IMG/VR virus record: IMGVR_UViG_3300050821_017216 | Span: 1-64,000 of that record | Origin: a virus | Strand: one strand, 5' to 3' | DNA: 64,000 bases | Part shown: in pieces, positions 1 through 47,939 of the stretch | Layout of the letters: each line of letters opens with the position of its first letter | Numbering within the stretch: the stretch's first letter is position 1 | Made by a program: the position numbers and the translations under genes | Notes under the pieces: model-generated | What the model was told of the DNA's origin: nothing | What the model saw: only the letters and a program-made list of their open reading frames with translations | The model's database searches: none

Positions 1-98
1 CGAACAGGACGCGAGCGTCGTCACCGAGGTCGGTCTCCGTACGCTTCACGATGTCATCTAGGTAGACCTTCTTCATCTTTGCTCCCTTCGCGCGCACG
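1..98. repeat. Exact direct repeat (>=98 bp, runs off left edge) of 30061-30158; 5' end of a duplicated small gene
   Basis: 1-98 identical to 30061-30158; identity stops at CGCGCGCACG; encodes MKKVYLDDIVKRTETDLGDDARVLF on the minus strand (ATG at 76). Confidence 0.95.
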
Positions 99-101
99 CG
101 A

Positions 102-368
102 TCAGCGTCCTAACAGGCGACGCACAGCCCCGTGACACGCACAATCGCTCCTGGTGGCTCCGGTTGCTTCCAGGAGCGCCGTTTCACGCACGGTGGCCAG
201 CAGCGCCCGCAGGTCGTCGTACGCCTCGGACGTGTCCACACCGTGCCGGTGCTTGCGCAGCCAATCGGCCGCTAGCGCATCGTGTGTCGGGTCGTCTTGC
301 AAGCGAGTGAACGGGATGCCCATGTCATTGAGCAGGCCCTCTACAACTTCAATCGGTTCCTTCTCCAC
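102..368 (-). CDS. Hypothetical protein (cassette-like gene)
   Basis: 88-aa ORF with GGAGGAG RBS; GCGCGCA motifs at 90 and 385 flank it. Confidence 0.7.
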   Translation of the reverse strand: MEKEPIEVVEGLLNDMGIPFTRLQDDPTHDALAADWLRKHRHGVDTSEAYDDLRALLATVRETALLEATGATRSDCACHGAVRRLLGR

Positions 369-394
369 CGTCTTCTCCTCCAGCGCGCGCAGAG

Positions 395-607
395 CTACTG
401 CGCGGATTGTTTAGTTGGCCACCACGTCCGCCTCCAGCACATGAGGCATCCCCATATCGTTCCTGCACGTGCGTTCGTGCGGCTGCATCGCGGACACACC
501 CACGAGAGAGCATCCAGCGCCTTACCTTCGGCCTCGCATCTGGGACAGTCTACGGCGAGCACCACACCGTGGTCGCACTCCGCCAGCTTCATCCCGTGAG
601 AGCCCAT
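395..607 (-). CDS. Small Cys-rich (CxxC) hypothetical protein
   Basis: AAGGA RBS before ATG at 607; CPRC x2 and CLMC motifs. Confidence 0.6.
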   Translation of the reverse strand: MGSHGMKLAECDHGVVLAVDCPRCEAEGKALDALSWVCPRCSRTNARAGTIWGCLMCWRRTWWPTKQSAQ

Positions 608-627
608 CTTGGTGTCCTTCGCGCGCA

Positions 628-882
628 TCATTGGTCGGCATCCTCGCAGAGCCGAAGTAGGGCGGCGTACCAGCATTCGGAACAGAGCGACGGCGGCACG
701 TACAACTCTCCCGGGTGCATGCGGTCGTGCAGCTTTCGCTTCATCTCATCCGCCCCGGCGTCGATGCGACCGAGACACTGGCCGCAGCGCACTCCGGGGA
801 TGGCGAGTGCGCGCACCTGATTCTGCGTGCGCTCCTTCGCCTCCTCGGGGGTGTCGTCGTTGCTTCCGCCGCAGTGTCCCAT
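628..882 (-). CDS. Small CxxC hypothetical protein
   Basis: 84-aa ORF, GAGG RBS, CGQC and CSEC motifs. Confidence 0.6.
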   Translation of the reverse strand: MGHCGGSNDDTPEEAKERTQNQVRALAIPGVRCGQCLGRIDAGADEMKRKLHDRMHPGELYVPPSLCSECWYAALLRLCEDADQ

Positions 883-953
883 TGCCTACCTCATATCCAG
901 CTTCTTGCAGTGCATCGCGCGCACGCGCGCACTGGGATCGTCCCCACCGTTCC

Positions 954-1316
954 TCACCTCGCGTTGAGCGCTTTGGCCATCTCGCGGACGGTCGACGTGA
1001 ACAGGTGGTCCTTGCCTTGCTGCGCGACCGGGAGCTGAGCGTACGGCACGAAGCACGGGTGCTCCTTCTTCTCCGGGTCCTTGACCGGCCCATACTTCCA
1101 CCCGGTCGCCGCCTTCTCGGCCAGCCACGACTCGTGCGACTGCTCGGGCGTGTTGCCGGCGAGGGCTCCCGTGACGCCGTTGCGCGCGCTCGACTTCTGC
1201 CAATCGGGGGCGTCCTCCCACGACGGCTGAGAGGTGTCTCCGAGCGCCAGACAGTAGGCCCTGTTCACTTCGTGCGCCGCACGGGCGCATGCTTCTACGA
1301 CGTCGTAATCGCTCAT
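954..1316 (-). CDS. RyR-domain-like phage protein
   Basis: AHEVNRAYC...HESWLAEK...GWKYGPVKDPEKKEHPCFVPYAQLP matches the RyR repeat pattern common in phages. Confidence 0.7.
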   Translation of the reverse strand: MSDYDVVEACARAAHEVNRAYCLALGDTSQPSWEDAPDWQKSSARNGVTGALAGNTPEQSHESWLAEKAATGWKYGPVKDPEKKEHPCFVPYAQLPVAQQGKDHLFTSTVREMAKALNAR

Positions 1317-1367
1317 GGCTTGTCTCCTTCGGTTTCGGTTGTCTTGAATCGTCCCGCGCGCACGCGA

Positions 1368-1829
1368 TCAGGCGGAATCCTTCGGATGCTCCACACGCAG
1401 GCAGGCACCGACCCACTTGCGCATGCGTGTCCACCTCTCTGCGGGCGTCTCGGGCGGTGGTCGCTTCCAAGACCCATCCTCGCCCCTTACGTACAGCGGC
1501 ACGAACTCGTCGTTCTCGTAGGCGATCTCACACGCGAGCGCACGTGCGATGCCGAACGTCCCGGCAACCGTGTCCGGGTCTTCGGGGTCCAGGTTGGACA
1601 CGTCGAGCTTGCGCGCCAACGCGACCGCACCCATGGCACACACGTGCTCGCTGTCGCGGACCACCTCGTCGGCGACCAGTTCCTTGACCGGCATCGCGTC
1701 GAGCGCGGCAGCCATCTCGCGAAGGAATGCCTGTCCCCTCTTTCCGCTCAGCGCCCTATCGACGTTCGCCCTGTAGCAATTCAGGGCGCCTTGGTCTTCG
1801 ACGTCGTCCGTGTACCCTGACCGGCTCAT
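1368..1829 (-). CDS. Conserved phage hypothetical protein
   Basis: MSRSGYTDD...ALSGKRGQAFLREMAAALDAMP resembles a family recalled from phages; good RBS. Confidence 0.7.
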   Translation of the reverse strand: MSRSGYTDDVEDQGALNCYRANVDRALSGKRGQAFLREMAAALDAMPVKELVADEVVRDSEHVCAMGAVALARKLDVSNLDPEDPDTVAGTFGIARALACEIAYENDEFVPLYVRGEDGSWKRPPPETPAERWTRMRKWVGACLRVEHPKDSA

Positions 1830-1880
1830 CGCTTGCCCCTTTCCTGAATCGTCGCGCGCACGCGGGTGCGCTGATCGTGA

Positions 1881-2222
1881 CTACAGCGCCTTGGCTTTCG
1901 CGATAGCGTCGCGCAGCGCATCGTGAAGCCGAAACGACTCGGCCATGAGGCTGTCCGCCTCGCCGACCGTCATGCGGCGCTTGGTTCGCTCACGCATCTC
2001 GTTATCGAAGCGGCCGAGTCGATCTCCGGCCTCGACCAATTCCGCAAGTGCCGTTTGCCGCTCGGTGGCTTCCGCCTGGAGCCTCTCGATAACCTCGTCA
2101 CCCGTCTTGTTCGATTGGATGAGGGGAGCCCGCACCTCGTCGAGCAAGGTGGCCAGATCGTCCACCTCCGTAGTGGCAAGCCGGCAGCGGCGCCGAGCAC
2201 GCGCGGTCCGCGCACGCGCCAT
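1881..2222 (-). CDS. Hypothetical coiled-coil protein
   Basis: 113-aa ORF ending just before the junction motif at 1854; start uncertain. Confidence 0.5.
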   Translation of the reverse strand: MARARTARARRRCRLATTEVDDLATLLDEVRAPLIQSNKTGDEVIERLQAEATERQTALAELVEAGDRLGRFDNEMRERTKRRMTVGEADSLMAESFRLHDALRDAIAKAKAL

Positions 2223-2433
2223 GGGTAACGCTCGAGACGGTGCATCCAGCTGGCGGCGCTGGACAGTACAGCCCGCACCCGACGCCAGCGGGTCGTGTTC
2301 TCTTCACGCAGACCACCGCGGCGAAGGTGAGCAGCGCCGTGACGGCGACTTCGCAGACGAACCATCGGACCTTCATGTGTACCCATCGTGATATACACTG
2401 TAGCTCACAATCCGGGTCCGAGCAACCGGGTTG

Positions 2434-2811
2434 CTACTTCGCGGGCCCTGGTGTGCCGGGCGCCGCCCGGTTCTCGACGATCTGGACTCTCCGCTCGTCT
2501 TCCGGCAGGTGCAAGAGTCCATCCTGGACGTGCCCGGCGACCTCCACCTTCGCGCCGAGCAGCAGGTCCGCGGACAGGCGCGCGAGCGCCTCCGCCTCGT
2601 CTTGGCCGTAGACGTAGTAGGTGGCCGCCTCGCGCTTCGGCGCGTCCGCGGTCGCCGCCACCTCCACCGTCGTCACCTTGAACCGCACCGACACGGTGGG
2701 CTCATGCGGTTCGCCGTCGAACTCCGCGTCGATCAGCGGTGGGTACGACCGCTCGGCGGCGGGGTAGAGGTGAGCGGTCAGTCTGCGCTTGGCCCAGTCG
2801 ACGATCTTCAT
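2434..2811 (-). CDS. Hypothetical protein
   Basis: 125-aa ORF with GAGGG RBS, in the leftward block. Confidence 0.55.
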   Translation of the reverse strand: MKIVDWAKRRLTAHLYPAAERSYPPLIDAEFDGEPHEPTVSVRFKVTTVEVAATADAPKREAATYYVYGQDEAEALARLSADLLLGAKVEVAGHVQDGLLHLPEDERRVQIVENRAAPGTPGPAK

Positions 2812-4965: not shown

Positions 4966-5276
4966 CGCTCCCGCTCTTCCCCCAGGCCAAGGCCGAACCC
5001 GCGCACCACTGCCACGCGCGCGGCTGCGCGACGGCGGTCCCGCCCGAGATGCTCATGTGCCGCGCCCACTGGCGCATGGTCCCGCGCGCCGTCCAGCGTG
5101 CCGTCTGGGCCGCGTACCGTCCCGGGCAGTGCGCGGACAAGCGGCCGTCCGAGGCGTGGCACCGCGCCGCCGACGCCGCTATCGGCTACGTCGCGCGTGC
5201 CGAGGGGCGCCCGCTGCGCCTGCAGGAGTCCATCGAGCTCGTCGCGTTCGGGTACCCACCATTCGTGGAGACGTGA
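4962..5276 (+). CDS. Conserved phage Cys/His protein
   Basis: HHCHARGC...LMCRAHW...VWAAYRPGQ; translationally coupled. Confidence 0.7.
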   Translation: MTLPLFPQAKAEPAHHCHARGCATAVPPEMLMCRAHWRMVPRAVQRAVWAAYRPGQCADKRPSEAWHRAADAAIGYVARAEGRPLRLQESIELVAFGYPPFVET

Positions 5277-13814: not shown

Positions 13815-14066
13815 TCAGGCCCCTTTCTCTGCCTGCGCGCGAGCGCGCATCAACTCAGCCTCTTCAGCTCCCCGCACGAGCAGCGCGGCGAGGTTGCGCG
13901 CGGCGACCGGGTCGAGGCGGCGCATGGCCCCAACCACGCCCGTCCGGAAAGAGCCGTTACACTCAAACAGGTTGAGCGAAACACCTTCCGTGTCGGCCCA
14001 CACTTCACCTGCGTCGTACGGGCTGTTGTGGTTCGGTCCCCTCACGCCACCTATGAATACGCTCAT
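13815..14066 (-). CDS. Hypothetical protein
   Basis: 83-aa ORF between HerA-like gene and thyX. Confidence 0.55.
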   Translation of the reverse strand: MSVFIGGVRGPNHNSPYDAGEVWADTEGVSLNLFECNGSFRTGVVGAMRRLDPVAARNLAALLVRGAEEAELMRARAQAEKGA

Positions 14067-15791: not shown

Positions 15792-16492
15792 CGGCTCACC
15801 CCACCGGCCGGGCAGCCGCCGCCGAGGTGGATCGATCGCGGGTAGCCGGTGCGGCGCTCGACGTACCCCCCGCACCTCCCGCACACCGCGCGCGTGACGC
15901 CGACCGACTCCACCGCCGGCTTCGGCTGCGCACTCGCCCGTCGGCGCGTCCGTACCGTCGGCCTGCGCACGCGGACGTGGCGCGGCGATCGGCTGACGAC
16001 GCGCCCGTACTCCACGCCGGCTCGCCACGGTACCAGGCGGCCGAGCTGCTGGGCCTCGGCGAACAGCTCCAGCACCTCCTCGCGCAGGCTCACGGCCCCC
16101 TCCAGCGGTTGCTCTTGAGGTGCGACTCGATGTCCGGGTGCTCGCGCACGGCCAGGATCTTGGCGCACGCCGGCGAGCAGGTCCGAGCCTTGGGCGACTG
16201 GTACTTCCGCTGGGGGACCGGCTCGCCGCAGACCGCGCAGTCGCAGATCTTGCCCATCACGGATCCCTCGGTTCGCGCGCATACCACGATTTATCCGGTA
16301 CGCCGCAGTGCGAGTTGAACCGGGCCGCCGCCCGGTTGAGTAAAACGATCGCTTGCGCCAACTCCGACACCGCCTCGTCCGAGTGGGAGGACTCCATCAC
16401 GCGAGCCGACGGAATGGCACACCGGGACACTCGAGCCGCTTCCTGCAGCTCACGCGCTACGTCGCCCAACGTCCTGCTGCGCGCGTCGCCGG

Positions 16493-17422
16493 TCATCCGG
16501 CCGCTCGCGCTGGTTCGTTGCGCCACTCTCCCGCGCGGATGCGCTCCGGGATGGCGGCCGGCGACCCGTCCCAGTTCTCGTCGCCGTTCCACGTGCGCTC
16601 GATCCACGCGGCGATGGCCTCCGCCGCGCCGTCCTCGACCTTCTTGAGATCTCTCACGGGCAGGGGGGTCGCCGACGGCGGCTCCCCGCCGCCGACGAGC
16701 TTCGGCTCGGGGAGACCCATGACCTCTCGGGCCTTTCTGGCGTTCGGGTTGCGCTTCTTGCCCGGCACCCGTGGCGCCTCGGCGAGCAGCTTCGCGAGCT
16801 TCGTGCGCGCCCCATCCGGCTCCTCACGCGCCAGCCTGTAAGCGTCCGAGACGGAGATCTTGCCCGCGTCGAGCGCGTTCCGTACGACCGCGGGCGCGTC
16901 GAGCAGCTTGAGCAGGCTCTTGACGGTCGACTCGCTCGCGCCGAGCAGGGCCGCCACCTCCTTCTCGTCGTGGCCGAGGTTGATGTACCGCTGAGCTTTG
17001 AGCGCGCGGTGCATCGGCGTGTCCGCCCGGCGGTGCTCGTTGGTGGTGATCATCATCGCCATCCGCTGCGACGCGTTCACCCGCTTGAGGTGTACCGGCA
17101 GCCGGAGCAGGGGCAGCCCCTGCTTCTTGAGGCGCTTGTTCGCCTCGCGACACGCCTTGGTGCGCTGCCTGCCGTCGGTGATCTCGATCTTGCCCGTCTC
17201 GGGGTTACGCGACCCGTTGAGGATCTCAAGGACCCCCTGCGGGGTCGCGCCGTCCGGCGCGTACATCATGCTGGCGACGAGCGCCTCGTCGAAGTCGTAG
17301 TGCACGCGCTCGTCGTAGACCGGCGAGTTCTTGTCCTCGACGAGGACGACGTCGTTCGGGTCGAAGTACCAGACGTCGGTCTTACCCTTCGCCTTGAGTG
17401 CGTCTCTCGATTGCTTCGGCAT
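16493..17422 (-). CDS. ParB-like protein
   Basis: EITDGRQR motif, TNEHR, followed by an HTH (EVAALLGASESTV). Confidence 0.7.
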   Translation of the reverse strand: MPKQSRDALKAKGKTDVWYFDPNDVVLVEDKNSPVYDERVHYDFDEALVASMMYAPDGATPQGVLEILNGSRNPETGKIEITDGRQRTKACREANKRLKKQGLPLLRLPVHLKRVNASQRMAMMITTNEHRRADTPMHRALKAQRYINLGHDEKEVAALLGASESTVKSLLKLLDAPAVVRNALDAGKISVSDAYRLAREEPDGARTKLAKLLAEAPRVPGKKRNPNARKAREVMGLPEPKLVGGGEPPSATPLPVRDLKKVEDGAAEAIAAWIERTWNGDENWDGSPAAIPERIRAGEWRNEPARAAG

Positions 17423-19179: not shown

Positions 19180-20112
19180 TCACGCGGCGGCGGGTGCGGG
19201 CTTGTCCGCGTCGGTGGATCCCTGCTTCGAGTTGAGCCGGATCTGCACGCGGTTGAACGCGTCGACCAGGCCGGCGGGGTACTGCTTGATCCAGTCGCGC
19301 ACGACCTTCTCGAACGCCTTGTCGCCGATCTCGGCGAGCATCGCGTCGAGCTCCTTCCTCATCTGGTCGCCGCGCGTGTCGTCCTCCTTGACGGCCCGCG
19401 CGAACTCGTCCCACGACAGCGGGAGCTTGTCCGGGAAGAGAGCCGTGCCGCGCGCCTTCGCGTCGTAGGCCGGCATGCGCTTGGTGTAGATCCACCGCTC
19501 GCCGGTGGTCGAGACCTTGGCGGGCTTGCCCTTCTCCACCACGGCGTGCGTCACGTTCTCGCGCGCGAAGAAGACATAGTCGCTCCAGCCCTTGAGCAGG
19601 GCGGCCACCTGCTTCCTGCACGCCAGCTCGAACCGCTCGTAGCCGGGACCCGTCGGGTCCTCGAACTTCTGCACCTTGGCGTGCGCGATGAAGATGATCC
19701 CCTTGCCGCTCATCCAGACGCGCTCGACCTGCGCGAGCAGGCGCCGCCACTCCATGACGGCGACGTCGTCCCCCTTGCCGTACCCGCCCTCGTACTTGGT
19801 GATCGTGCTGTTCGGGAAGAGCTTCGCGTGGCTCATGATCTCGAAGTCCGAGAGCACGTCGAGCGCGACGTTGTCGCACTTGACTTGCCCGTGCTCGATG
19901 GCCTCGAGCCAGTCGAACGTCTCGTCCCACGAGTCGATCTCGACGCGCTCGACGTCGAGCTTCGAGCTCCCCTTGTTGGCGTCGAGGAAGAACACGTTCG
20001 GTGCCCCCGCCGCCATCGTAGTCTTACCTACACCCTCGAACCCGTAGAGGACCACGCGCGGCGGCCGCGTGACCTTGCCCTTGACGATCCGTTTCAAGTC
20101 GACTGCTGCCAT
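19180..20112 (-). CDS. AAA_24/Sak4-like ATPase (ssDNA annealing)
   Basis: VVLYGFEGVGKTT Walker A, IIFIAHAK, LKGWSDYVFF, PAYDAKAR. Confidence 0.85.
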   Translation of the reverse strand: MAAVDLKRIVKGKVTRPPRVVLYGFEGVGKTTMAAGAPNVFFLDANKGSSKLDVERVEIDSWDETFDWLEAIEHGQVKCDNVALDVLSDFEIMSHAKLFPNSTITKYEGGYGKGDDVAVMEWRRLLAQVERVWMSGKGIIFIAHAKVQKFEDPTGPGYERFELACRKQVAALLKGWSDYVFFARENVTHAVVEKGKPAKVSTTGERWIYTKRMPAYDAKARGTALFPDKLPLSWDEFARAVKEDDTRGDQMRKELDAMLAEIGDKAFEKVVRDWIKQYPAGLVDAFNRVQIRLNSKQGSTDADKPAPAAA

Positions 20113-20114
20113 CT

Positions 20115-21167
20115 CTACACCTCCGCCCCGGTCGCGGGAGTCGAACCCGCCGCAGGCTGCCTGTCAGCACCGGGCGCGCCGAGCCACTCGCGCGGGTCAC
20201 CCTCGTAGATCGCGTCCATCTTGCCGGCCAGCCGGAACGTGCGCGACGTCGCCCCCGTCTCCGGGTTGACCAGGTCTACCTCGAACTGCGACTCCACCGC
20301 GACGATGCCGCGCGTGGCGTCGCCCCAGCGCGCCACGTAGCCGACGATCATCGCCCGCTCGCGCTGGTAGTCGTACGGGTCCTCGCGGTCGAGCGCGAGT
20401 AGGGCCTCGTCGAGCGACTTGCCCCTGCGAAGGGCCTCGACGGCCCGGTGCACGCTCGACCCGGTCCGCAGCGCCTCGGACCGAAGCACCGGTCGCATGT
20501 GCAGGATGTATCGGATCTGGTAGCGGCGCGGGCACGCGCGGAACGTGCGCATGCTCGACTGCGTGAGCACCACGCGGTCGGTCTCGAAGACGTCCTCGAG
20601 CTCCTCGTGCTCCTTGTCCTCGCGTCGGAATAGGAGCGGGTCGTCGAGCGGCACGTCCCCGCAGCACGCGGGCAGGAAGTCGCACGCGCGGCTCCACTGG
20701 AAGCACGAGTCGGGGTTGCGGGGATAGACGTTCAGGCGGCGCGCCTCGCGCATCGTCTGCGCCGTCTGCCAGACGTCGACCGCGCCGTCGTGCTGCTCCT
20801 GGAACAGGCGCACGGGGAGCGCCCGCTGGTAGTACGCGTCCGGCTCCGCGGCGATGGCTGCCAGGCAGCGCGCGCCGTACTCCTCAGGCGTCTCGTCGCG
20901 CTCGCGCTGGTTGGCGTAGAGGCGCGGCGTCGGTTCCTTCTTGGTTGGCTGGGTGTACTTGCGCGACTCGAGCGGCGTAGCCTTCAGCGGCCGCAGGGCG
21001 ACCTTGCCCAGGACGTCATAGCCTATGCCGGCGGGGTCAAGACCCTTCTGCACCGCGGCGCGCAGGTAGACGCCGATCTGGGGATCCATCCGGATTCGAC
21101 GCCAGTAATTCGACCCAGGCATGATGTCCTCGCCGGAGGTCTTCGTCTCGAGGATGAGGAGCGACAT
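20115..21167 (-). CDS. Circularly permuted PD-(D/E)XK (Cas4/AddB-like) exonuclease
   Basis: ETKTS, QIGVY and C-x6-C-x5-C come before TQSSMRTFRACPRRY, GSSVH, ESQF and GKMDA. Confidence 0.8.
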   Translation of the reverse strand: MSLLILETKTSGEDIMPGSNYWRRIRMDPQIGVYLRAAVQKGLDPAGIGYDVLGKVALRPLKATPLESRKYTQPTKKEPTPRLYANQRERDETPEEYGARCLAAIAAEPDAYYQRALPVRLFQEQHDGAVDVWQTAQTMREARRLNVYPRNPDSCFQWSRACDFLPACCGDVPLDDPLLFRREDKEHEELEDVFETDRVVLTQSSMRTFRACPRRYQIRYILHMRPVLRSEALRTGSSVHRAVEALRRGKSLDEALLALDREDPYDYQRERAMIVGYVARWGDATRGIVAVESQFEVDLVNPETGATSRTFRLAGKMDAIYEGDPREWLGAPGADRQPAAGSTPATGAEV

Positions 21168-28818: not shown

Positions 28819-29081
28819 GATCTCGTTGGTCGCGCACGCGGGTCATTCGATCCTCGGCAGAAACGCACCACACCCGCACCCTTGCGAGCAGTGCGTCGGC
28901 TCCGGTGTTCCAACCGGATGCGCGTGGCCATGGTGTAGCTCGTGGGAGTGCCCGCACCGAGCGCAAGGTTGCATGAGCGGGCACGTCGGCGCGTGCGGCC
29001 CCTGGATCATGTTCACCGAGATGAACAGCGCTCCACATCCCCTGCACGGGTAGATCCCCATCTAACAGCTCCTCGCGCGCA

Positions 29082-29366
29082 TCATGGCGCCGGTTGCGAC
29101 GCTTCAAATAGGCCCGTGGCTACGTGCAACACGCACACGAACCCCGGCACGACCGACTCGGCGCCCGGGACGCATCGGGCGCACGCGTGGTCCTTCTCGA
29201 ATGGGCGATGGGCGTGGTGCTCTACGATCCACTTCGCCATGTGCAGCGAGAGTGTGCGGGAGTCGTCAAGAGCCGTGAGCAACTTCCTGTACTCGTCGAT
29301 GGCGGCTCCCTGCGAGCAGCCGGCCGACGTGCTGTAGAGCAGCTTGGCAAACTCCTTGTCGGTCAC
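29082..29366 (-). CDS. Hypothetical protein
   Basis: 94-aa ORF ending next to the junction motif at 29075. Confidence 0.6.
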   Translation of the reverse strand: MTDKEFAKLLYSTSAGCSQGAAIDEYRKLLTALDDSRTLSLHMAKWIVEHHAHRPFEKDHACARCVPGAESVVPGFVCVLHVATGLFEASQPAP

Positions 29367-29655
29367 CTCTTCGTCTCCTCATCCCCCAGCCCATTACGCA
29401 ACCGCCTACCAAGCTTCCACGCCCTACGATGCAGCGACCCGGGGGCGCCCTCGGGAATTGTCGCTGGGTTCTCCACGGTGTCGAGAAGGTTGGCCATGCG
29501 TCGTTCCCAAACCGCATTAGTGCTCCTCTCGGTGCGCTCTCCGCACCCGGCGAGCTTGTCCGCCATGACGTCCGCTTGGTAGTCGGCGTGGTCCACTATG
29601 GCCATGCGTTCCTCATCTCCCGGCTTGCCCATAATCTTCCCTTTCATTGCGCACA

Positions 29656-29838
29656 TCACTTCGCGGATGCCACCGACACGCACGCCGGTGTGCTCTCGGG
29701 GTCTGTCGACAGACGGGCGCGTGTTCCGTCTGGGCACGTGTCCCGTCGAGATGGTCCGCACCGCAACATCGGGTTGCGTGTGCAGTCGCATGCGGCGAGC
29801 GATGCCGCTGCAAGGATGATCGCTACGATTCGCTTCAT
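29656..29838 (-). CDS. Small putative lipoprotein
   Basis: MKRIVAIILAAASLAAC signal peptide and lipobox; strong RBS. Confidence 0.65.
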   Translation of the reverse strand: MKRIVAIILAAASLAACDCTRNPMLRCGPSRRDTCPDGTRARLSTDPESTPACVSVASAK

Positions 29839-29887
29839 CGCCTTTTCCTTTCAGTCCCTCGCGCGCACGCGGGTGCGGCGATCGTCC

Positions 29888-30136
29888 TCACGTCTCCGTC
29901 CCGGGCCGCACATTGGTGGCGTCGGTGACCTCGATGCACACGACGTTACTCGCGACGGGACGCACGCGCATCGACCCGTTCTTGACTCGGATCGAGAGCG
30001 TCCCCTCGCTCTCCTGCCGACCTGCATGGGAGCACAACACCTCAGCTCCGTTCGGAAGCACGAACAGGACGCGAGCGTCGTCACCGAGGTCGGTCTCCGT
30101 ACGCTTCACGATGTCATCTAGGTAGACCTTCTTCAT
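29888..30136 (-). CDS. Hypothetical protein; second copy at window start
   Basis: 82 aa, AAGGGAG RBS; 5' part identical to 1-76. Confidence 0.75.
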   Translation of the reverse strand: MKKVYLDDIVKRTETDLGDDARVLFVLPNGAEVLCSHAGRQESEGTLSIRVKNGSMRVRPVASNVVCIEVTDATNVRPGTET

Positions 30137-30386
30137 CTTTGCTCCCTTCGCGCGCACGGTGGGTGCGCAGTTGTTCCCTACGCCTGGCACCTGTCCAACC
30201 ACCATTCCCGCCAGCAGAGCGTACACGCCGTGGGGCAGTGACAGGAGCCGGTGTTGTGGTCCGCCTCGTCTTGAGCCGACGCGCCCAGCTTCCCACACTC
30301 GGTACAAGGTACCCCGGTCCGGCTCAGCTCCGGACCTGCAACGTTCGCCTCCGAATTCTGAGAGGCGCGCAGATGGGTGAGTTTCA

Positions 30387-30770
30387 TTACGACCTTTCGT
30401 TGGGTGCGTAGGCTGTCCTTCCGCCCACACCTCGCCACGGCTCCACGTCCAAAGTGCGACCGTCGCGATGCTTGACAGCCCATCGATTCGACCGCCGACC
30501 GTGAACGAAGATGCTCCAGACGGGACCGCGCGGAAGAGTCACCCGGTGGAACCGTTCCGCTCGCAAGACATTGAAGAACCATCGAATCCTCGGCGATTCG
30601 CCGAATCTCTCTTCAAGGTACCGCCCGAGGATAAGGCTCACACCGCTCCAAGGGTGCGAGTGAAAGACGTCAGCATCTTCGTCGTGGTGGATGTGGTGAA
30701 CGAACAGACCGAACCCGAATGCCTGTAGGACGTAGAAGCGGTCCAGGTTGTCTCGACGGGACACTTTCAT
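30387..30770 (-). CDS. Cupin-like protein
   Basis: FHSHPWSGVSLILGRYLEE...FHRV. Confidence 0.5.
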   Translation of the reverse strand: MKVSRRDNLDRFYVLQAFGFGLFVHHIHHDEDADVFHSHPWSGVSLILGRYLEERFGESPRIRWFFNVLRAERFHRVTLPRGPVWSIFVHGRRSNRWAVKHRDGRTLDVEPWRGVGGRTAYAPNERS

Positions 30771-30798
30771 GGTCGGCTCCGAGACGCGCGCAGATGGT

Positions 30799-31131
30799 CT
30801 ACCGCGGCGCCCGCAGTTTTTCGACGCGGTCTCGATTGAGTACATCGTGCGTGTCGGCGACCATCATGGCGAAGTTGGCCACGTCTGCGCACTCGCCGAG
30901 GAGCTTGGCGCAAGCGTCGTCGTGCGCCCGCTGGTCTCGCTCCGACCAATCCACCTTGGCCTCGATGCGCGTCAGCGTGTCCAGGATTGCGAACAATTCG
31001 CGTAGTTCGGTCCGGAGGCGACGGCGCAGGTAACCGCGTCCGCAGTCCGCCCACCCGCCCTTGTGGTCATTGCGCCGGAGCTTGGCATCCATCGCCTCGG
31101 CGAACCGCCTCACCTCGACTCGTTCACTCAT
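30799..31131 (-). CDS. MazG-like/nucleotide diphosphohydrolase-like protein
   Basis: FAEAMDAKLRRNDHKGGW...ECADVANFAMM. Confidence 0.5.
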   Translation of the reverse strand: MSERVEVRRFAEAMDAKLRRNDHKGGWADCGRGYLRRRLRTELRELFAILDTLTRIEAKVDWSERDQRAHDDACAKLLGECADVANFAMMVADTHDVLNRDRVEKLRAPR

Positions 31132-31193
31132 CGTTTTCTCCAGTTTGGGCAAGGCGCGCATTTTAGACAGTCTGTCGTCCGATCCGCCGCGTC

Positions 31194-32042
31194 TCATTCG
31201 GCAGCCTGCTGCGTTCGAGTCAAGGCCCCAAGACGCCGCCTGGCAGTGAGTACGTAGGCGTCAGACTGCTCCACACCGACCACGTCATCCCACCCAGCGC
31301 CGAGTGCTCCGAGCATTTCCGATCCGGAGCCGGCGAACGGGACTAGCAGGCGTCCAACGCCAGAACTAGGTAGAATCAACTTGGCGAGCGCGGAGCACAA
31401 CAGGATCGGCTTTGGCGTCGGATGGCCCGAGTCGGACCGCTCTGCCTTCGTTGGCTTCGGGTGACGCACCACGTTCTCTGGATGTGACGTCCCCTCAGTC
31501 CGAAGGTCCCCTACACCCCAACAAACCACGTTGAGCGGTACGGTGCTCTCTGTCAGCGGACGACGCGCCAGCACGATCGGTTCGTAGGTTGGGCGCAATT
31601 CGGTTGTCCTGCTCTTAGGAACGCCGTGACCGTGCTCCCACGCGATACTGTCGCGCACCTCCCACCCGGCATCCTCGATTCCGGCAGTCAGTCGGTGGAC
31701 CGTGCGCGGCGACCCGAACGCAAAGAGCCATGCTCCAGGTTTTACAACTCGGAGTAGCATTGCAGCCCACTCGACCGTCCAGACATGAAAAGCTGTGTTC
31801 GTGCGGCTGCGAAAGGCTACTCGATCCTGCGGATTGCCCCCTCGCCCGTAGCCCTTCATGCGGCCCTTGTTCCCGTATCCGGCTTCCGAGCGAGCCTTGT
31901 ATTCCCGCTGCCTGCCAGGGTCGTCCCATCGTTGGGATGAGAGTGCGTATGGCGGGTCGCAGAGAACCCCATCGAACGTCATCGGCGTCATGCTGGGCAA
32001 GATGTCCTCGACGCGCCCGTGAATGACCTCAAAACGTCTCAA
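31194..32042 (-). CDS. N6/N4 DNA methyltransferase
   Basis: VLCDPPY, HPTPKP, VPFAGSGS. Confidence 0.85.
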   Translation of the reverse strand: MRRFEVIHGRVEDILPSMTPMTFDGVLCDPPYALSSQRWDDPGRQREYKARSEAGYGNKGRMKGYGRGGNPQDRVAFRSRTNTAFHVWTVEWAAMLLRVVKPGAWLFAFGSPRTVHRLTAGIEDAGWEVRDSIAWEHGHGVPKSRTTELRPTYEPIVLARRPLTESTVPLNVVCWGVGDLRTEGTSHPENVVRHPKPTKAERSDSGHPTPKPILLCSALAKLILPSSGVGRLLVPFAGSGSEMLGALGAGWDDVVGVEQSDAYVLTARRRLGALTRTQQAAE

Positions 32043-32081
32043 TTCGATCCTCCGCCTCGGGTTGCGCGCAACCGGATGACT

Positions 32082-32384
32082 CTAACGCTCGGCAGAAACC
32101 GGGAACTTCTCGGCGAGGCGAGCGGTCACCGCGGCGTCCAGATCGATGTCCGCGCCCGAGAACCGCGACGCGCAGATGACGAGGTCTGCCAGGTACGGCG
32201 CGACCTCGGAATGCTTGAGCGCTCGCCCCTCGTGCTGCGAATCGTTCAACGCCGACGCGACCTTACCGAGCGCCTTCGTCATGTGAACGAGCGCATGCCC
32301 AGCGTCCGCCGAGGCGTGGCACGGGTTGTTGAGTTGCTGCTCCCACCTGATGTTCACTTCCGCTTGCAGTCTTGAGAGGTCCAT
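32082..32384 (-). CDS. MazG-like protein
   Basis: HMTKALGKVA...LADLVICA...LDAAVTARLAEKF. Confidence 0.55.
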   Translation of the reverse strand: MDLSRLQAEVNIRWEQQLNNPCHASADAGHALVHMTKALGKVASALNDSQHEGRALKHSEVAPYLADLVICASRFSGADIDLDAAVTARLAEKFPVSAER

Positions 32385-32441
32385 TCCCGTTTCCTTTCGT
32401 CGGTTTGGGTCGCGCGCAGATGGGTGAGTCTGGCGCTCGCA

Positions 32442-33380
32442 TTAGTCATGGCAGAAGCAGTCCCCCAAGTCGTCCTCTGTCCCACACGTTTTGGGGTCGT
32501 CGACCCGCCTCGCGAGTACCCGGAGCTGGCGGTAGGCGGGGCGGTCCTGGCGGAACAGGGAGCCCGCGTCGCGCTCGACGTCCTGCCACCACTTGAGCCG
32601 TCCGGGCTCCTCCTGCTCGATGCGCAGGAGCTTCGACGTCGCCTTGAGGATGCACCCGTCGCAGTTGCCGCGATAGGTCCCGAGCACATCGTCGATGGGC
32701 AGTCCTAGGTCGAAGTCCTGCGTCTTCCAAAACGCGATGACGCGAGCCTCGTCGACCTTGGCCTCCGCGAGAGGCATCACGTGCTCCCACCGTTCGGGCG
32801 GGGAGCGCTTCAACTTGGCCACGCGCGAAGGTTCGTCGGCGCGGATGCCCATGACCATGTCCCACTTCTCGTAGCGACGCTCAAGCATCCACCGCTTCAT
32901 CACGCGGACCTTCATCTCCGTTGTACACGTGCGAAAGGCTGGATTCGGCAGGCCGCTCATGGCGACGAAGTTCTCGTACGGCTCGCCCTCGCGCGATGCG
33001 GTCTCGAAGGTCACCTCTCGGAAACCGCGCTCGCGCGAATCGTCGAGTCCTGCGTTCGCCCACTGACGTGGTCGCGACATCCAAGCCGCCTTCGGGCGCT
33101 TCGACCTGAAGCGTTCAGCGATGGCGCGAACCTCGTCGCTCTTGTACTTCGGTAGCTCTTGGCGCTCGTACTCCAGCCAATGCACGTCGACACCCCAGTA
33201 GCGAGCGATCTGGTCAACGAACGTGAGCGTCTCTCGGTACTCCTTGCCGGTGTTGCAAAAGAGCACGTGGACGTCCGGCTGTAGCCCCTCGTCAAGGATG
33301 CGACGCAGCATGTAGGCGCTCGTGCGCCCTCCGGAGAGGGAGATGACGGCGGGACCTTCGACGAGGAACGGGGACTTCAT
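32442..33380 (-). CDS. PAPS-reductase-family (PP-loop) protein
   Basis: ISLSGGRTS, FCNTGKE, CTTEMK, GIRADE, GNCDGC, C-terminal CFCHD. Confidence 0.85.
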   Translation of the reverse strand: MKSPFLVEGPAVISLSGGRTSAYMLRRILDEGLQPDVHVLFCNTGKEYRETLTFVDQIARYWGVDVHWLEYERQELPKYKSDEVRAIAERFRSKRPKAAWMSRPRQWANAGLDDSRERGFREVTFETASREGEPYENFVAMSGLPNPAFRTCTTEMKVRVMKRWMLERRYEKWDMVMGIRADEPSRVAKLKRSPPERWEHVMPLAEAKVDEARVIAFWKTQDFDLGLPIDDVLGTYRGNCDGCILKATSKLLRIEQEEPGRLKWWQDVERDAGSLFRQDRPAYRQLRVLARRVDDPKTCGTEDDLGDCFCHD

Positions 33381-33414
33381 GGCAGCTCCGGGCTTGCGCG
33401 CAGATGGGTGAGTC

Positions 33415-34056
33415 TCATTCCGCAGCTTTCGCGGTCCCGCTCGACCTGCGCGCGAGGTCGATCAGGAGGTCTCGAAACGGCAACGGCGTTGCCGCACGCT
33501 GTTGGTGGGAGAGCCGTTGGCAGATGCCGGTCTTGCGCAAACGGGCCCGCTCTTCCTTCGAGTGGTAAACGTCCTCAAGCTTGATTTGCATCTTCGGGAT
33601 GCTCCAGTCGAGCGCGGGCGGCAGACCACGACCGGCGTAGTAGAGCCAGGTCAGCTTGCGAGCTCGGTGCCCGTAGTTGCCTTGGGCGACGCAGCACACG
33701 TAGCCATCCCACTGGTCGACGCATTCGAGCCAACCCTTGCGCCAGGACGGGCAAGGTAGGCCGTGCGCGCGGAAGGCGAGGCTCGCCTCGGGGTGCTCTA
33801 GGACGCCACCGAACCGTCGCACCGACTCCAGCGCCGACGCGAAGCATCCGCCGTCGTCGCCGAGCGTCTTCTGTCGCGGCGTGCCGTGCAGCATCGGGCC
33901 GCCTCCCCAGTACCGCCCCCAGCGCTCGCACGGCGGATGCGCCACGACCGGCCAAGGGCCGGCGTACTTGCGCGCGTCCCTCGTTACGTCCCACGGGTCG
34001 ACGCCATCGACACCAAAGTAGGCGCCTCCGGTTGCTACGAAAAGTGCGGCAATCAT
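33415..34056 (-). CDS. Truncated C5-cytosine methyltransferase-like protein
   Basis: VVAHPPCERW, GVLEHP, RAATPLPF. Confidence 0.6.
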   Translation of the reverse strand: MIAALFVATGGAYFGVDGVDPWDVTRDARKYAGPWPVVAHPPCERWGRYWGGGPMLHGTPRQKTLGDDGGCFASALESVRRFGGVLEHPEASLAFRAHGLPCPSWRKGWLECVDQWDGYVCCVAQGNYGHRARKLTWLYYAGRGLPPALDWSIPKMQIKLEDVYHSKEERARLRKTGICQRLSHQQRAATPLPFRDLLIDLARRSSGTAKAAE

Positions 34057-34089
34057 GGGTCCTCCGAGGTAGCGCGCAGATGGGTGAGA

Positions 34090-34272
34090 CTACTTCTTGC
34101 CGCTTTTGGAGCTTCCGCCCTTGAGCGACGCAGCCTTCTCTGACCGGCTTTGACGGTCGCGGAGGTACTCCGCTGCCTTGGTGTCGCCTCGTCGCTCTGC
34201 GTCTTGCCGCAAATTCAATGCTTCCTTGGCGTCCTGCTCGTACATCTCTGACTCCGACTTCGGTGTGCTCAT
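34090..34272 (-). CDS. Small hypothetical protein
   Basis: AAGGAG RBS; MSTPKSESEMYEQD. Confidence 0.55.
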   Translation of the reverse strand: MSTPKSESEMYEQDAKEALNLRQDAERRGDTKAAEYLRDRQSRSEKAASLKGGSSKSGKK

Positions 34273-34528
34273 GTTTGCTCCTTTCAATGCGCCGAGGCGC
34301 GGCGCGCGCATATGATTCACTCTAGCTCTCCCGAAATCGCGATCTGGTACGCCATGTGCAACGAGTAGTCGTCTGACGGTCTACGCCTCCGGTCCTTTGG
34401 GAAGAAGGTCCACCTTCCCACGGAAAGCTCCCTCCAACCGGCGCTAACGCCAGACACGTACGGGCGCTCGCGTAGGTAGGCGAGCATCTCGTCATCCGTT
34501 GGCTGCATGAGGGATGCGTGCATGGCGG

Positions 34529-34813
34529 CTAGTTCGGCGCTCGCAACTCTCGTTCGAGCTCCTCAACTCGTTTTTGCAGCTCCGCCTCACGCTCTCGCGC
34601 TGCCTTTCGCTTTTTCTGGAGATGGCCGCACACGTAGGTGGCACCTCCGAAGAGGCCGAACAGTGGAGCCGCCATCGGCCAAAACAGCGAGCATAGAAAC
34701 GGGAAGGGCGTGTTCCACGGACTGTCAAGTTCGTCGATGCACCAAGCCACCCCAACGAAGGTGCAAAAGGCGACGAGCCCGTACCCGATGATGATTACGA
34801 TCGTTGTAAACAT
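34529..34813 (-). CDS. Small membrane protein
   Basis: Two hydrophobic segments plus a coiled-coil tail; CSLFWP. Confidence 0.65.
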   Translation of the reverse strand: MFTTIVIIIGYGLVAFCTFVGVAWCIDELDSPWNTPFPFLCSLFWPMAAPLFGLFGGATYVCGHLQKKRKAAREREAELQKRVEELERELRAPN

Positions 34814-34841
34814 GGTCTTCTCCGGTGCGCGCGCATGAGGA

Positions 34842-35114
34842 TTAGCCTCCGACGCGCGGTTTCATGTTGCTCATCACGCTCTCGATTCGCTGACGCACCT
34901 CGGCCACTCCGGCGTTGTGGCCCCGTCTGTAGCTCTCTCGCATGTCGGGGCAGGCTTCACACTTGATGCACGTGTCGCACTCTGGACGGTAGTGCCCATA
35001 GCCAGGTTTGAAGTTTTTGCGAGCGTCCTCTGTCTCGACGTTGAAGCCGCACCCTTGGCACTTGACCATCGGTCGCGGCTGGTCGGCAAAACCCTCTGAC
35101 GTGTCTTCGCTCAT
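34842..35114 (-). CDS. Zn-finger hypothetical protein
   Basis: GGAGG RBS; CQGC, CDTC and CEAC motifs. Confidence 0.6.
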   Translation of the reverse strand: MSEDTSEGFADQPRPMVKCQGCGFNVETEDARKNFKPGYGHYRPECDTCIKCEACPDMRESYRRGHNAGVAEVRQRIESVMSNMKPRVGG

Positions 35115-35380
35115 GGTCCCTCCGGTGAAGCGCGCATATCGACCAGCGCGCCTTCCGTTGCTTCTTGCATGCCCATCAGCTCTTGTGTCTCCCGTCTACG
35201 ACAGCCCGCACGAAGTCGTCGCCGCTCATCCGGTCGAACGCCCCGCACGTCGGCTGCGCGTGCAGGAGGTGCCCTGGGTCGTCAGGCGGGTCGCCCCACC
35301 GGACCGAGACCGCGCGCCCGCAGTACGGGCACCGACCGTCCACGTCCGACCTGACCACCTCGCCCCCCGACCGGTCTCCG

Positions 35381-38300
35381 TCAGCCACTCGCGCCTCCCT
35401 TCCCTCGTACGAACCGCATCGCGTCCCGGATCCGCTCGTCGGGCCAGCCCCACTCGGTCGCGACGGCCCGCGGGTCCCCGGCACCGCTCAGCGTGGCCTG
35501 GTGGAGCGCCTGGCCGTCCGCGCGCGCCTTGGACTGGCGGTGCTTCGCCAGCGCCCGGGCCCGCCCAGCGCGTGCCTCTGGCCAGCCCAGGGTCTTCGTG
35601 GTGGCCCGCCACTCGGACTCGTCTAGGTCGAAAAGCACGGACGAGTCCGCCTCCGTCTGCTCGTCCGCCGTGGGCTGGCGAGGTGTGGCGGGTGTGGCGG
35701 AGTGTTTTTCGAGGTGTGGCGGAGGCTCCGCCACACCTCCGTCTCTATAGTTACCGTCAGTTAGACCACGTGTGGCGGGTGTGGCGGGTGTGGCGGAGCT
35801 ATTTCCGCCACTCCCCCCCGGTGTGGCGCGTGTGGCGCCATCACTAGGGGGTATGGGGGATTTTTTTGGACCGCCCATCACACACCGATCGGTAGGTAAG
35901 TCACCACCGTCTGAGTCTGGTTGCGGGGCGTACTGCCCCGACGGGTAGTGCTTCAGGTCCTTCGGGTTGCTCCTGTCTACGGTGATGGTGTGTGACACGC
36001 TCTCACAATAGGAGATCGCGGCGTCAGCCCGGTCCTTTCCACACTCGCCCATCGCGGCGGCCATCGACGCCCGGAGCTGACGCGAACCGATCCCTGGCGA
36101 CCGTGAGACGACCCTCAGGCACGCGTCCCGGTCCCGGGCGCGCTGCTGCTCCTTCGAGTCCGCGGCGGCGGCTCGCCGCTGGGCGACCTCCTCCTCGGCC
36201 TGCCGCCTCTCCTCCTCCTTCTGCTGCCTCTTCTGCTCCTTCGACCGGTCGGCCTTGCTGAGGGCCTCGACGACGGCATCCCCACCGTCCCTGGCGGGCT
36301 CGTACCGGAAGCCCGTGAAGTGCATCGGGGTCCACCGCGCCCCCGTCGCGCGCCCCTTGGCGGTGACGAAGACGACGCTCTCGCCCTGGCCGTCCACGTA
36401 GGTGTCCGGGACGCGCGACAGGACACTGACGCTGTCGGCGCCGTACTCGATCTCGCCGCTCTCCTTGCCGAGGCCGACGAGGACGTCCGGGATCGTGACG
36501 CGCCGGTTGACCAGGCGGTCCTTGTCGTAGTCCCAGCTCAGGTCGGCGCTCATCACCATCGGCCAGAGCCCGTACTTGTCGCGCGCGACGGACGCGACGA
36601 CGAGGATCGCGATGTTGTGGTGCGTCGCCACCTCGCGCAGCGCGTAGGCGGCGCGCCCGATGCGCTCGCGCAGGTCGAGCGTCTTGTACTTACCGTCCTC
36701 GTCCTCCTCCGGGCCGACGATCTGGAGGTAGTCGAGGACGATCAGGATCGGCCTCGACCCGGGTCCGCCGGAGTTCAGCGTCTCGGACGGGGGCGGCTCC
36801 GGGTACTTCTGGCGGAGCGCGGCGGCGAGCGCGTGCACCTTGCTCGCGGGCCAGCCCATCGGGTTGCGGTTGACCGGGTGCAGCGGGAGTTTCCCAGCCT
36901 TCGCTTTCTCTGCGAGTTCGATCGCGACCGTGGCCGCGCGCTCGAGTGCGTCCTGGCTGGTCTGACCGGTGTAGAGGTCGCTCCACCGGAGCTTCGCCTC
37001 CTCGCCGACCACGCGCAGGTCGAACTGGAGATCGTCCATCTCGAGGCCCACGTAGGCCGTCGGGACGCCCTGCTCGGCGGAGTGCTTGCAGATCTGCAGG
37101 ACCGCGGCGGTCTTGCCGACCCCGGTGCCCGAGCAGAGGATGTGCAGCCCCGGCCACAACCCCCCGCCGAAGTGCTCCTTGAGATCGCCCCACGGCAGCG
37201 GCACCGGCTTCTCGATCCCGACCGATCGCCGTACGGCGCGCGCGACGGATGTCTTGAGGTGCTCGCCGATGGTGGGCGCCCACTTGTCGAGGTCGTCTTG
37301 CTCGGGCCCGGCCGGCGCGGCGGGGAGGGGCGGCTCGGCGGCCTGCGAGTGGGTCGGGGCGCCGACGACGAGTTCCAACCCGAACCGGTCGCTGATCGCG
37401 ACGACCGCCTCGCGCGCGGCGACGTGGTGGACCTCCATGACGAGGTCGATGTTCGTTCTGAACCCGGCGCGCCCCTTGTCCTTGCAGCGGTTGTGGTGGC
37501 ACTTCAAGCCGTGGTTGAGGATCGAGACGCCGCTCGTCTCGCCGCAGCCCGGGCACGTGACCTCGCCGCTCGCGTTGTATAGGCCCAGCCACTCGGCGAC
37601 GGCCTGCGGGTCGACGGAGTTCGCGAGCGAGTACGGCGAGTCCGGGTTGTCGCGCATCGGCGACACGACGCTCGGCGCCGCTGCCGGCTGCAGGCGCGAC
37701 CCGAGGACGCCGAACGCCTTCTCCATGGCGGCCCGGCCGTCGGGGTTCAACCCGTCCCAGACGGTGCGCGCGAGCTCGACGATCCGCGCCAGCGAGAGGC
37801 GCGTGACCGCCTCGGGCGTCACGATGGCGGTGCGCCGGTGCGGGCGGTCCTCGACGCCCGCCGCGCCCTTCTTCTTCAGGGTCCCGCACGCGGGCAGGAT
37901 GCGCTTGGCATCGAAGAGCTTCTCGTCGACCGACACCTCTGGCGTGTTGAAGAGGTGAGCCAAGCCCGTGAGCAGCCCCGCTATCGCGTTCTTCGACTCA
38001 TCAGTCACCGGCACCGCGTCGAGCGCGACGTGGATCTGCCGGCCGTTGCCCGAGTGCAGGTACGCGAGCGAGCTCTCTCCGTCGAGGTGGTGCGCGAGGA
38101 AGTTCCACGCGCTCTGCGCGACGCGCACCGACCGCTGCACCTCCTCGTCGGTCGCCGAGATGCCCGACGGGCGCTTGACGTCGAAGTCGATCGCCAGGAT
38201 GAGTCGCGCCTCGACGTCCGAGTCGGTCGTGCCGGCGCCCTTCTGGATGTCAAACCAATGACCCGGCGCGGCGTTGCGCGACTCGACGCCGGCGCGCAGG

Positions 38301-45644: not shown

Positions 45645-45995
45645 GTCGAGGTTGAAGAACGACCTCGCTGGACTCGTATCGTTTACCGTCCGCTTGCCAG
45701 GTCGAGGTCGTCGATCGACCTCGTCGTACCGACAGCCATCGCTCTTCTTCCAGAAGGCGAACCGCTACTAGTCGAGGCCGCCGATCGGTCTCGCTGTCGT
45801 ATCGACTGCCCCAGAATTGCAGCTCCATCTCAGGTCGAGATCGACGATCGACCTCGCTGTCATTCCGACTCGTGCCGCAGCGGCAATCTACCTCTCTGGC
45901 GTGGAGTGTCGAGGTCGTCGATCAACCTCGCTGGCGTTACAACGGCGCAGGTGCTGCACGTCAAGGTCGTCGGTCGACCTCGCTGTCCCCGCGCC
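45645..45995 (-). CRISPR. Degenerate trailer block of type-A repeats (about 6)
   Basis: Degenerate GTCGAGGTCGTCGATCGACCTCGCTGTCGTTCCGAC copies at 45645, 45701, 45771, 45834, 45908, 45960. Confidence 0.8.
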
Positions 45996-46015
45996 TACCT
46001 GCCGGCCCCGCTTGT

Positions 46016-46811: not shown

Positions 46812-46836
46812 AAGGCGCATCGCCATGGAACCCCGA

Positions 46837-47898: not shown

Positions 47899-47939
47899 AG
47901 GTAACGTTATGTTGTCAATGATCTTGTAGGCTTACCGAC
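47899..47939 (-). promoter_or_regulatory. Short AT-richer CRISPR leader
   Basis: 41 bp between the cas stop codon and the first, undegenerate repeat. Confidence 0.6.

Follow-up and report, generated by a model that had tools for sequence, protein, structure and literature searches.

In T4-type phages, promoter-early stem-loop elements (PeSLs) are composites in which a stem-loop terminator accompanies a consensus sigma-70 promoter preceded by an AT-rich region, and exchange between nearby elements gives rise to mini-circles (PMC2839356, PMC4122927). In Cluster K mycobacteriophages, the SAS/ESAS elements are 13-bp repeats that contain the ribosome-binding site (RBS) with its Shine-Dalgarno (SD) core and lie 3-7 bp from the start codon; no role in cassette exchange is described for them in the available part of the source (PMC3203893). 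Here we describe a much shorter junction element, the heptamer TGCGCGC, in the phage record IMGVR_UViG_3300050821_017216 of IMG/VR. This linear genome of 119,899 bp originates from a soil metagenome, has 68% GC and is rated 100% complete by CheckV; the window analyzed in this work is its first 64 kb. The motif is enriched between genes, keeps one orientation relative to the genes that follow it, is conserved in related phages and coincides with the breakpoints at which genes have been exchanged. It marks movable one-gene modules and probably helps to create them. Our favored explanation, to which we give about an even chance, is that TGCGCGC would be a lineage-specific regulatory signal of gene junctions that is used as a crossover point in homology-driven cassette shuffling.

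The closest resemblance is to PeSLs, which are likewise short repeats between the stop codon of a small non-essential gene and the next RBS in hyperplastic regions, and at which single genes are inserted, deleted, replaced or duplicated by exchange among related phages. The element described here also lies in hyperplastic regions directly upstream of ORFans, and insertions, deletions and replacements break at it. In contrast to PeSLs, it has a core of seven GC-rich bases, lacks both a -35/-10 pair and a stem-loop, shows no excess folding and occurs in an unrelated lineage. Since the sigma-70 promoter and the stem-loop are missing, the element is not a PeSL of the T4 type. With integrons it shares co-directional single-gene cassettes that exchange at a short conserved junction site, horizontal transfer of cassettes and variable cargo, but there is no IntI-type recombinase, no R/L boxes and no imperfect-palindrome fold, each gene has its own RBS right after the site, and the arrays reside in a virus genome.

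The SAS repeats, as far as the available part of their description goes, are similarly short and asymmetric, keep one orientation and precede the starts of unrelated non-structural genes (PMC3203893). They differ in that TGCGCGC contains no SD core; it is followed by a separate RBS and stands 13-42 nt (once ~70 nt) from the start codon. Two further systems are comparable in layout. Stoperators of Cluster A mycobacteriophages are 13-bp asymmetric repressor sites that serve the temperate lifestyle; they too occur in many copies in short intergenic gaps, often touch stop or start codons and are oriented with transcription, whereas the present element has a 7-bp core of unrelated sequence and no identified repressor, in a phage whose temperate lifestyle is not evident (no integrase was found). 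The transcription-regulating sequences of nidoviruses and the junction signals of mononegaviruses have 6-7-nt cores before each gene that are also points of recombination or template switching; this is an analogy only, as these are RNA viruses with RNA-dependent polymerases, and no homology or shared mechanism is implied. Because the defining structural features of PeSLs and the defining features of integrons fail and the SAS repeats differ, the element may be classed by analogy as a form of modular shuffling mediated by junction elements, PeSL-like in its outcome and position.

The TGCGCGC motif at gene junctions

Genes were predicted by codon bias (201 genes genome-wide) and curated manually within the two arrays that carry the motif. 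Array 1, whose left end is cut off by the start of the contig, consists of seven co-directional minus-strand genes (1-76, 102-368, 395-607, 628-882, 954-1316, 1368-1829 and 1881-2222). GCGCGCA is found on the plus strand, that is TGCGCGC on the coding strand, at 90, 385, 621, 917, 925, 1356 and 1854, exactly where a preliminary description of this sequence had placed it. The order of signals proposed there also holds, as all six junctions of the array consist of a stop codon, 0-22 nt, TGCGCGC, 13-42 nt including the RBS, and a start codon. Read along the minus strand, the motif at 90-96 follows the stop of gene 102-368 by 5 nt and precedes ATG 76 by 13 nt; for the motif at 385-391 the corresponding distances are 3 nt (stop of 395-607) and 16 nt (GTG 368); the one at 621-627 abuts the TGA of 628-882 and precedes ATG 607 by 13 nt; for the motif at 1356-1362 the distances are 5 nt (stop of 1368-1829) and 39 nt (ATG 1316), and for that at 1854-1860 they are 20 nt (stop of 1881-2222) and 24 nt (ATG 1829). 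The remaining junction possesses a double motif, TGCGCGC-G-TGCGCGC (917-931), which follows the stop of 954-1316 by 22 nt and precedes ATG 882 by 34 nt. The example given earlier, TGA-TGCGCGC-GAAGGACACCAAG-ATG at 630-605, matches the sequence, and the longer 16-nt version GCGCGCACGCGATCAG is present at both 90 and 1356. A partial copy had also been reported at 2210; a degenerate TGCGCGG with one mismatch indeed occurs there (2208-2218, minus strand), but it falls just within the open reading frame if ATG 2222 is the start.

Array 2 (28831-35136, minus strand) contains about 16 small genes, all in the same direction, and their junctions carry the motif in 13 exact copies (29075, 29861, 30150, 30365, 30786, 31154, 32064, 32412, 33396, 34072, 34304, 34829 and 35130) and three variants (28831, 29649 and 34516). 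Two further minus-strand motifs are isolated: one at 13843-13849 abuts a TGA and is followed after 29 nt by ATG 13813, and the other, at 16275-16281, precedes ATG 16257 by 17 nt and lies downstream of a gene for a ParB/KorB-like helix-turn-helix protein (16493-17422, minus strand). At the head of array 2 is a gene for a 70-aa zinc-ribbon-like protein (35176-35388, minus strand). It is among the few array-adjacent proteins kept in the related phage B described below (5099-5251, 61% identity), and it is a possible regulator.

Counted on both strands, the window contains 85 copies of the motif versus 49.9 ± 6.9 in dinucleotide shuffles, none of 100 shuffles reaching 85. Genome-wide, the intergenic segments hold 34 copies, while 4.4 ± 2.3 are expected from segment shuffles (at most 14 in 300), and thus the enrichment that the preliminary description had proposed to look for amounts to an approximately eight-fold excess. 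A sense-strand motif occurs within 60 nt upstream of 20 of the 201 genes, compared with 6, 5 and 0 genes for the control words GCGCGCA, CGCGCGT and ACGCGCG, respectively. All 20 genes are on the minus strand (six in array 1, twelve in array 2, and two elsewhere, with starts at 13813 and 16257). TGCGCGC is the sole word other than the RBS that is enriched upstream of genes, and its one-mismatch variants show no pattern upstream of other genes. The intergenic excess and the control-word counts refute the view that the motif is a chance product of base composition, and the conservation of the layout in other phages speaks against it as well; we regard its probability as negligible, although GCGCGC-type words are common at 68% GC and most of the 126 copies in the genome lie in genes.

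The in-gene copies comprise 45 in sense and 48 in antisense orientation, compared with ~33 ± 5 in synonymous-codon shuffles. They are neither avoided nor biased to one strand, which means that the 7-mer alone can be neither harmful nor sufficient; the lack of avoidance also makes the bare 7-mer unlikely as an enzyme target. A Chi-like hotspot was rejected in view of the absence of strand bias outside the junctions and the precise placement between stop codon and RBS.

To describe the anatomy of the element we used 34 distinct junctions from four phage lineages, the 7-mer being invariant in them by selection. Conservation is moderate at positions -14 to -1, where C is frequent and G scarce, and position +8 is mostly G. 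The junctions fall into sub-families characterized by AGACTCACCCATC, AGACTGTCTGCCA, GCGCACCCxCG and CTGATCGCG; together with long forms such as AGACTCACCCATC-TGCGCGC and GCGCACCCxCG-TGCGCGC, the full element measures 7-21 nt. Junction sub-families of 28-59 nt recur before unrelated genes. The distance from motif to start codon peaks at 13, 15 and 22 nt, with a modal value of 15 nt to ATG, and often 5-6 nt separate the motif from the RBS that follows. About one third of the junctions contain an ANNNT word (TAGACT, TAGAGT or GAGACT) 8 nt upstream, at a -10-like distance. Such a word could serve as a -10 element, but as it is missing from about two thirds of the junctions it is a lead and not a general rule.

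Related phages with the same layout were found by means of the 17-mer CTCACCCATCTGCGCGC, which retrieved the IMG/VR contigs 3300017955_000001, 3300017928_000005 and, later, 3300017943_000002. These contigs overlap at 99.9-100% identity and represent one phage, here named phage B, whose left end has the same succession of stop, motif, RBS and start at consecutive small genes. The layout was also found in JGI contigs of Ga0209380 and Ga0074046 and is thus common to at least three other soil-phage lineages. The arrays occupy different backbone positions in different relatives. At 2440-2560 (minus strand) phage B carries a metallophosphatase-like gene with a TATAAA box ~10 nt before its ATG and no RBS; these sequence features suggest a near-leaderless transcript and an example of a conventional promoter in this phage group.

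With the 1096-aa DnaB-like helicase as query, viral contigs yielded no relative. A 780-aa protein led to a wider family of phages of 74-436 kb (37-47% identity), in which there are no TGCGCGC arrays. Upstream of homologs of the RyR family, one of which is encoded in array 1, the motif is missing in 77 of 80 other phage contigs, and it is therefore lineage-specific and not tied to the RyR gene. In the phage literature, TGCGCGC turned up only as an unrelated oligonucleotide.

Some members of this wider family possess other junction elements in the same position. In a 362-kb phage (G006, IMGVR_UViG_3300037608_000209, region 283-323 kb), GCGCGTACCG lies ~21 nt before the ATG of at least 13 genes; its leader, GCGCGTACYG...GGAGGTGA...ATG, is found on both strands with the spacing to ATG fixed at ~21 nt, and conservation starts at the motif and continues through the RBS to the ATG. 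A 95.9-kb phage (G009, IMGVR_UViG_3300005546_000002) contains about 45 intergenic copies of the 18-bp palindrome AGTCACGTYRACGTGACT, several of them followed by an AT-rich stretch and TTGACA, which would make it a PeSL-like composite of stem-loop and promoter. A further phage, G010, has no such junction element.

Exchange of cassettes at the motif

Comparison with other contigs revealed that single genes of both arrays have moved together with their motifs. The RyR-domain cassette of array 1 (910-1366, minus strand; gene 954-1316 with both flanking motifs) is 95.2% identical to that of phage B (compared in IMGVR_UViG_3300017928_000005 and 3300017943_000002), the backbone of which matches only at 68-77%. 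The block of similarity begins 4 nt before one motif and stops 6 nt past the next. The N6/N4 DNA-methylase cassette of array 2 (31154-32070, minus strand; gene 31194-32042), with a motif on each side, is 100% and 99.7% identical in the JGI contigs Ga0209380_10085929 and Ga0209380_10125121, respectively. In this case similarity stops at the first base of the upstream motif and at the last base of the downstream motif; outside the block there are other motif-bearing cassettes, and elsewhere the Ga0209380 phage is ~76% identical. The same methylase block with the same ends was found in Logan contigs of two sequencing runs, X2 and X3, from two other soil studies, identity over all these matches being 99.7-100%. 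For the cassette of a 94-aa protein (34529-34835, minus strand), the match of an X2 contig covers positions 34590-34835, and the two sequences part precisely at the 5' motif edge.

A further cassette is duplicated within the genome. It comprises 271 bp (29888-30158, minus strand), namely 2 nt, the motif, the RBS and an 82-aa gene through its stop codon. The 5' part of a second copy forms the very start of the contig: positions 1-98 (minus strand) are 100% identical to 30061-30158, with identity starting 2 nt 5' of the motif. The read depth of the 271-bp cassette in the source run is 20.6, compared with ~11 in its flanks. The nearly doubled depth and the identity of the two segments indicate that the whole cassette is duplicated and that the contig begins inside the second copy; the exact 98-nt overlap suggests that the assembly broke at the duplicated cassette.

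All breakpoints found, among them five independent joints, lie at the edge of TGCGCGC or 2-6 nt away from it, and thus gene changes do break at the motif, a point that the preliminary description had raised. Chimeric assembly was rejected as their cause, since identity between different junctions does not exceed 21 nt, below the word sizes of assemblers, and identical boundaries in three studies also contradict it. Turnover of the cargo is high, as only two of about 25 array proteins have a homolog in the arrays of relatives. The preliminary description had inferred a short site of recombination or RNA processing that makes single genes modular. Modular single genes with breakpoints at the motif are indeed what we observed, whereas a dedicated recombination site is at odds with the absence of a recombinase, of a hairpin and of avoidance in genes.

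The exactness of the joints can be read in different ways. It is possible, albeit unlikely, that TGCGCGC acts in expression alone, as a promoter, leader, operator or RNA signal, and that its overlap with the breakpoints is incidental to gene borders. Phage mosaic joints generally fall at gene borders, where they survive, and alignments would run through any signal shared by the two sides; as the gaps are only 20-60 nt long, a breakpoint at a border is always near a motif. The different junction words at the same place in relatives and the preferred spacings to the start codon are in line with this explanation. Against it, the five independent joints are found at the motif edge or 2-6 nt off and not elsewhere in the gap, nor do they fall at the RBS, which is equally universal. 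Moreover, junction sub-families of ~40-60 nt stand before unrelated genes, as if the junctions themselves had been exchanged.

The same joints would also be expected if TGCGCGC were a dedicated site, a core recognized by a phage recombinase or nuclease of unrecognized type in a hairpin-free, integron-like manner. This explanation, which we consider doubtful, draws on the position of every breakpoint examined at the motif or 2-6 nt off, on a core that is almost invariant over the 34 junctions (a set selected for the 7-mer) between variable flanks, and on motifs that flank cassettes on both sides and include a variant after the last gene of array 2. It also agrees with the presence of the motif at a phage B junction whose downstream gene has its own promoter-like box and with arrays at differing backbone positions in relatives. 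A novel enzyme could hide among the large proteins of the phage, most of which have no recognizable family. Several results argue in the opposite direction. Neither the Phage_integrase profile (PF00589), which matched 14 of 14 positive controls, nor the Resolvase profile of serine recombinases (PF00239), whose positive controls also matched, had a match in the 119.9-kb genome; the recombinase for which the preliminary description had suggested a search was thus not found. No conserved binding arms or inverted repeats surround the core, and no attC-like fold was detected. The genome tolerates 93 copies within genes, a costly situation if the 7-mer were by itself the substrate. Finally, there are no excision-type joints at motifs among the contigs of the source run, although contigs lose rare forms. 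It is likewise improbable that the arrays are a phage-borne cassette-capture system, integron-like with a hairpin-free 7-bp core and an enzyme of no recognized family; if they were, such a system would move anti-defense and other accessory genes, for example an orphan DNA methylase, singly between large soil phages.

Proposed regulation and recombination at the junction element

On the favored explanation, TGCGCGC would be the nearly invariant core of a junction element located between the stop codon of an accessory gene and the next RBS, in the rapidly changing, co-directional arrays of large soil phages that belong to a little-known lineage. The signal given at the junction may be a start or stop of transcription, a stoperator-type operator, or a signal on the ribosome-free intercistronic RNA. 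Homologous or microhomology recombination would then join cassettes at the motif, since it is the sole sequence common to unrelated junctions, with a shared identity of 7 to ~21 nt. We infer as candidate agents either the Sak4-like ATPase and the PD-(D/E)XK nuclease of the phage or enzymes of the host. Only recombinants with whole genes and the signal would survive, and the outcome would be duplication, replacement or phage-to-phage transfer of cassettes of one or two genes. By analogy, the different elements that occupy the same position in the more distant relatives G006 and G009 count in favor of a regulatory junction, and the precedent of the T4 PeSLs makes this account appear the simplest one (PMC2839356, PMC4122927).

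Searches for known signals at the junctions were mostly negative. The preliminary description had excluded a classical integron; in agreement with this, there are no attC boxes (GTTRRRY or RYYYAAC) at any junction, no integrase match and no hairpin. Its argument against a -10 box was upheld as well, and a conventional promoter at the junctions is unlikely. A sigma-54 promoter of the -24/-12 type was rejected, as there is no GG 10-11 nt upstream, and so was a shared leader peptide, as reading frames through the motif are inconsistent. Junctions fold no better than their shuffles (mean z-score +0.33 versus +0.21 in the control), and no Rfam family was found in the window. One terminator-like match on the plus strand (386-404) overlaps the motif at 385, on the non-coding strand.

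The orientation of the element and its distance to the RBS would also fit a signal that acts on RNA, in which the polycistronic RNA of an array would be cut or bound by a factor at UGCGCGC and each gene would have its own 5' end near its RBS. We regard this proposal as quite improbable. It would explain the strict sense orientation, the frequent location of the motif 5-6 nt 5' of the RBS with a modal 15 nt to the ATG, and the tolerated in-gene sense copies, which agree with masking by ribosomes; in G006, the conservation that runs from the motif through the RBS to the ATG points the same way. It is opposed by the absence of structure at the junctions and of an Rfam family, by motifs with no nearby gene start, and by the fact that no known endoribonuclease family of such specificity was found.

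Several observations weigh against the favored combination of regulatory signal and crossover point. RecA-type recombination normally needs identity far above seven bases. The sigma-70 search gave 0 and 1 promoter-like sites in the two arrays, none of them at junctions, and no terminators were found on the coding strand at any junction of either array. There is no match to Sigma70_r2 and none to the profile of T7-type RNA polymerases, although the latter result is uninformative because its control likewise matched nowhere; an NADFDGD-type motif was not found in six-frame translation. Only about one third of the junctions have the ANNNT word at its -10-like distance. A core conserved at seven of seven positions between variable flanks would be unusual for a promoter or an operator. 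Finally, some motifs have no close RBS behind them, namely the variant at 28831, which comes after the last gene of array 2, and a phage B motif that is followed after ~70 nt by a gene with a TATAAA box of its own. Such motifs would fit a mark that serves purely as a boundary or for recombination no less than a regulatory signal; they weaken a purely RBS-linked role and keep the reading as a recombination site alive.

Genomic context and implications

The recognizable proteins of the window form a typical phage set for replication and recombination. Among them are a DnaB-like helicase (1096 aa), an SNF2/ResIII helicase and an intein-bearing UvrD helicase. A gene for an AAA_24 (Sak4-like) ATPase (19180-20112, minus strand) adjoins one for a PD-(D/E)XK nuclease (20115-21167, minus strand), and the two constitute a candidate recombination module (19180-21167). 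A PAPS-reductase-like protein is also encoded in the window. No close relative was detected among 50,697 deposited phage genomes, and the sole outcome of a distant DNA search of this collection with array 2 was a ParB-like match of 150 nt. At 60-120 kb the genome encodes ten large proteins (439-1205 aa) that belong to no Pfam family and are almost without matches in PHROGs, and none of these ten was recognized as a terminase, portal or capsid protein. No tRNA genes were found.

Three features outside the arrays deserve description. The UvrD-type helicase gene (56334-58802, plus strand) is interrupted by an intein-splicing domain with a DUF559/MTES_1575 endonuclease-like insert. A dense array of 36-41-nt repeats (45700-47900) is located 41 bp from the gene for a 690-aa protein with a Cas12f1-like TNB domain (47940-50012, minus strand), and judging from its sequence this locus looks like a phage-borne minimal type V CRISPR locus. 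In addition, large plus-strand genes hold internal tandem or dispersed repeats of 72-77% identity (genome positions 104782-105313 and 111731-112289).

The fast-changing accessory regions of phages hold genes for host takeover and anti-defense. To our knowledge, the experimental record of single genes entering and leaving such regions is limited to the PeSLs of T4-type phages. An unrelated, uncultivated lineage of soil phages attains the same outcome, as its one-gene modules are delimited with nucleotide precision and are duplicated within a genome or shared at 95-100% identity between phages with backbones of 70-76% identity, and its junction element, with a GC-rich core of seven bases, is far simpler than a PeSL. 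The motif provides a concrete site at which to ask whether such motifs are conserved by regulation, by recombination or by both, and it can be used in practice to delimit cassettes and to mine metagenomes for mobile accessory genes of phages. Together with the PeSLs, this lineage suggests that large phages exchange genes by way of junction elements as a general principle of genome design.

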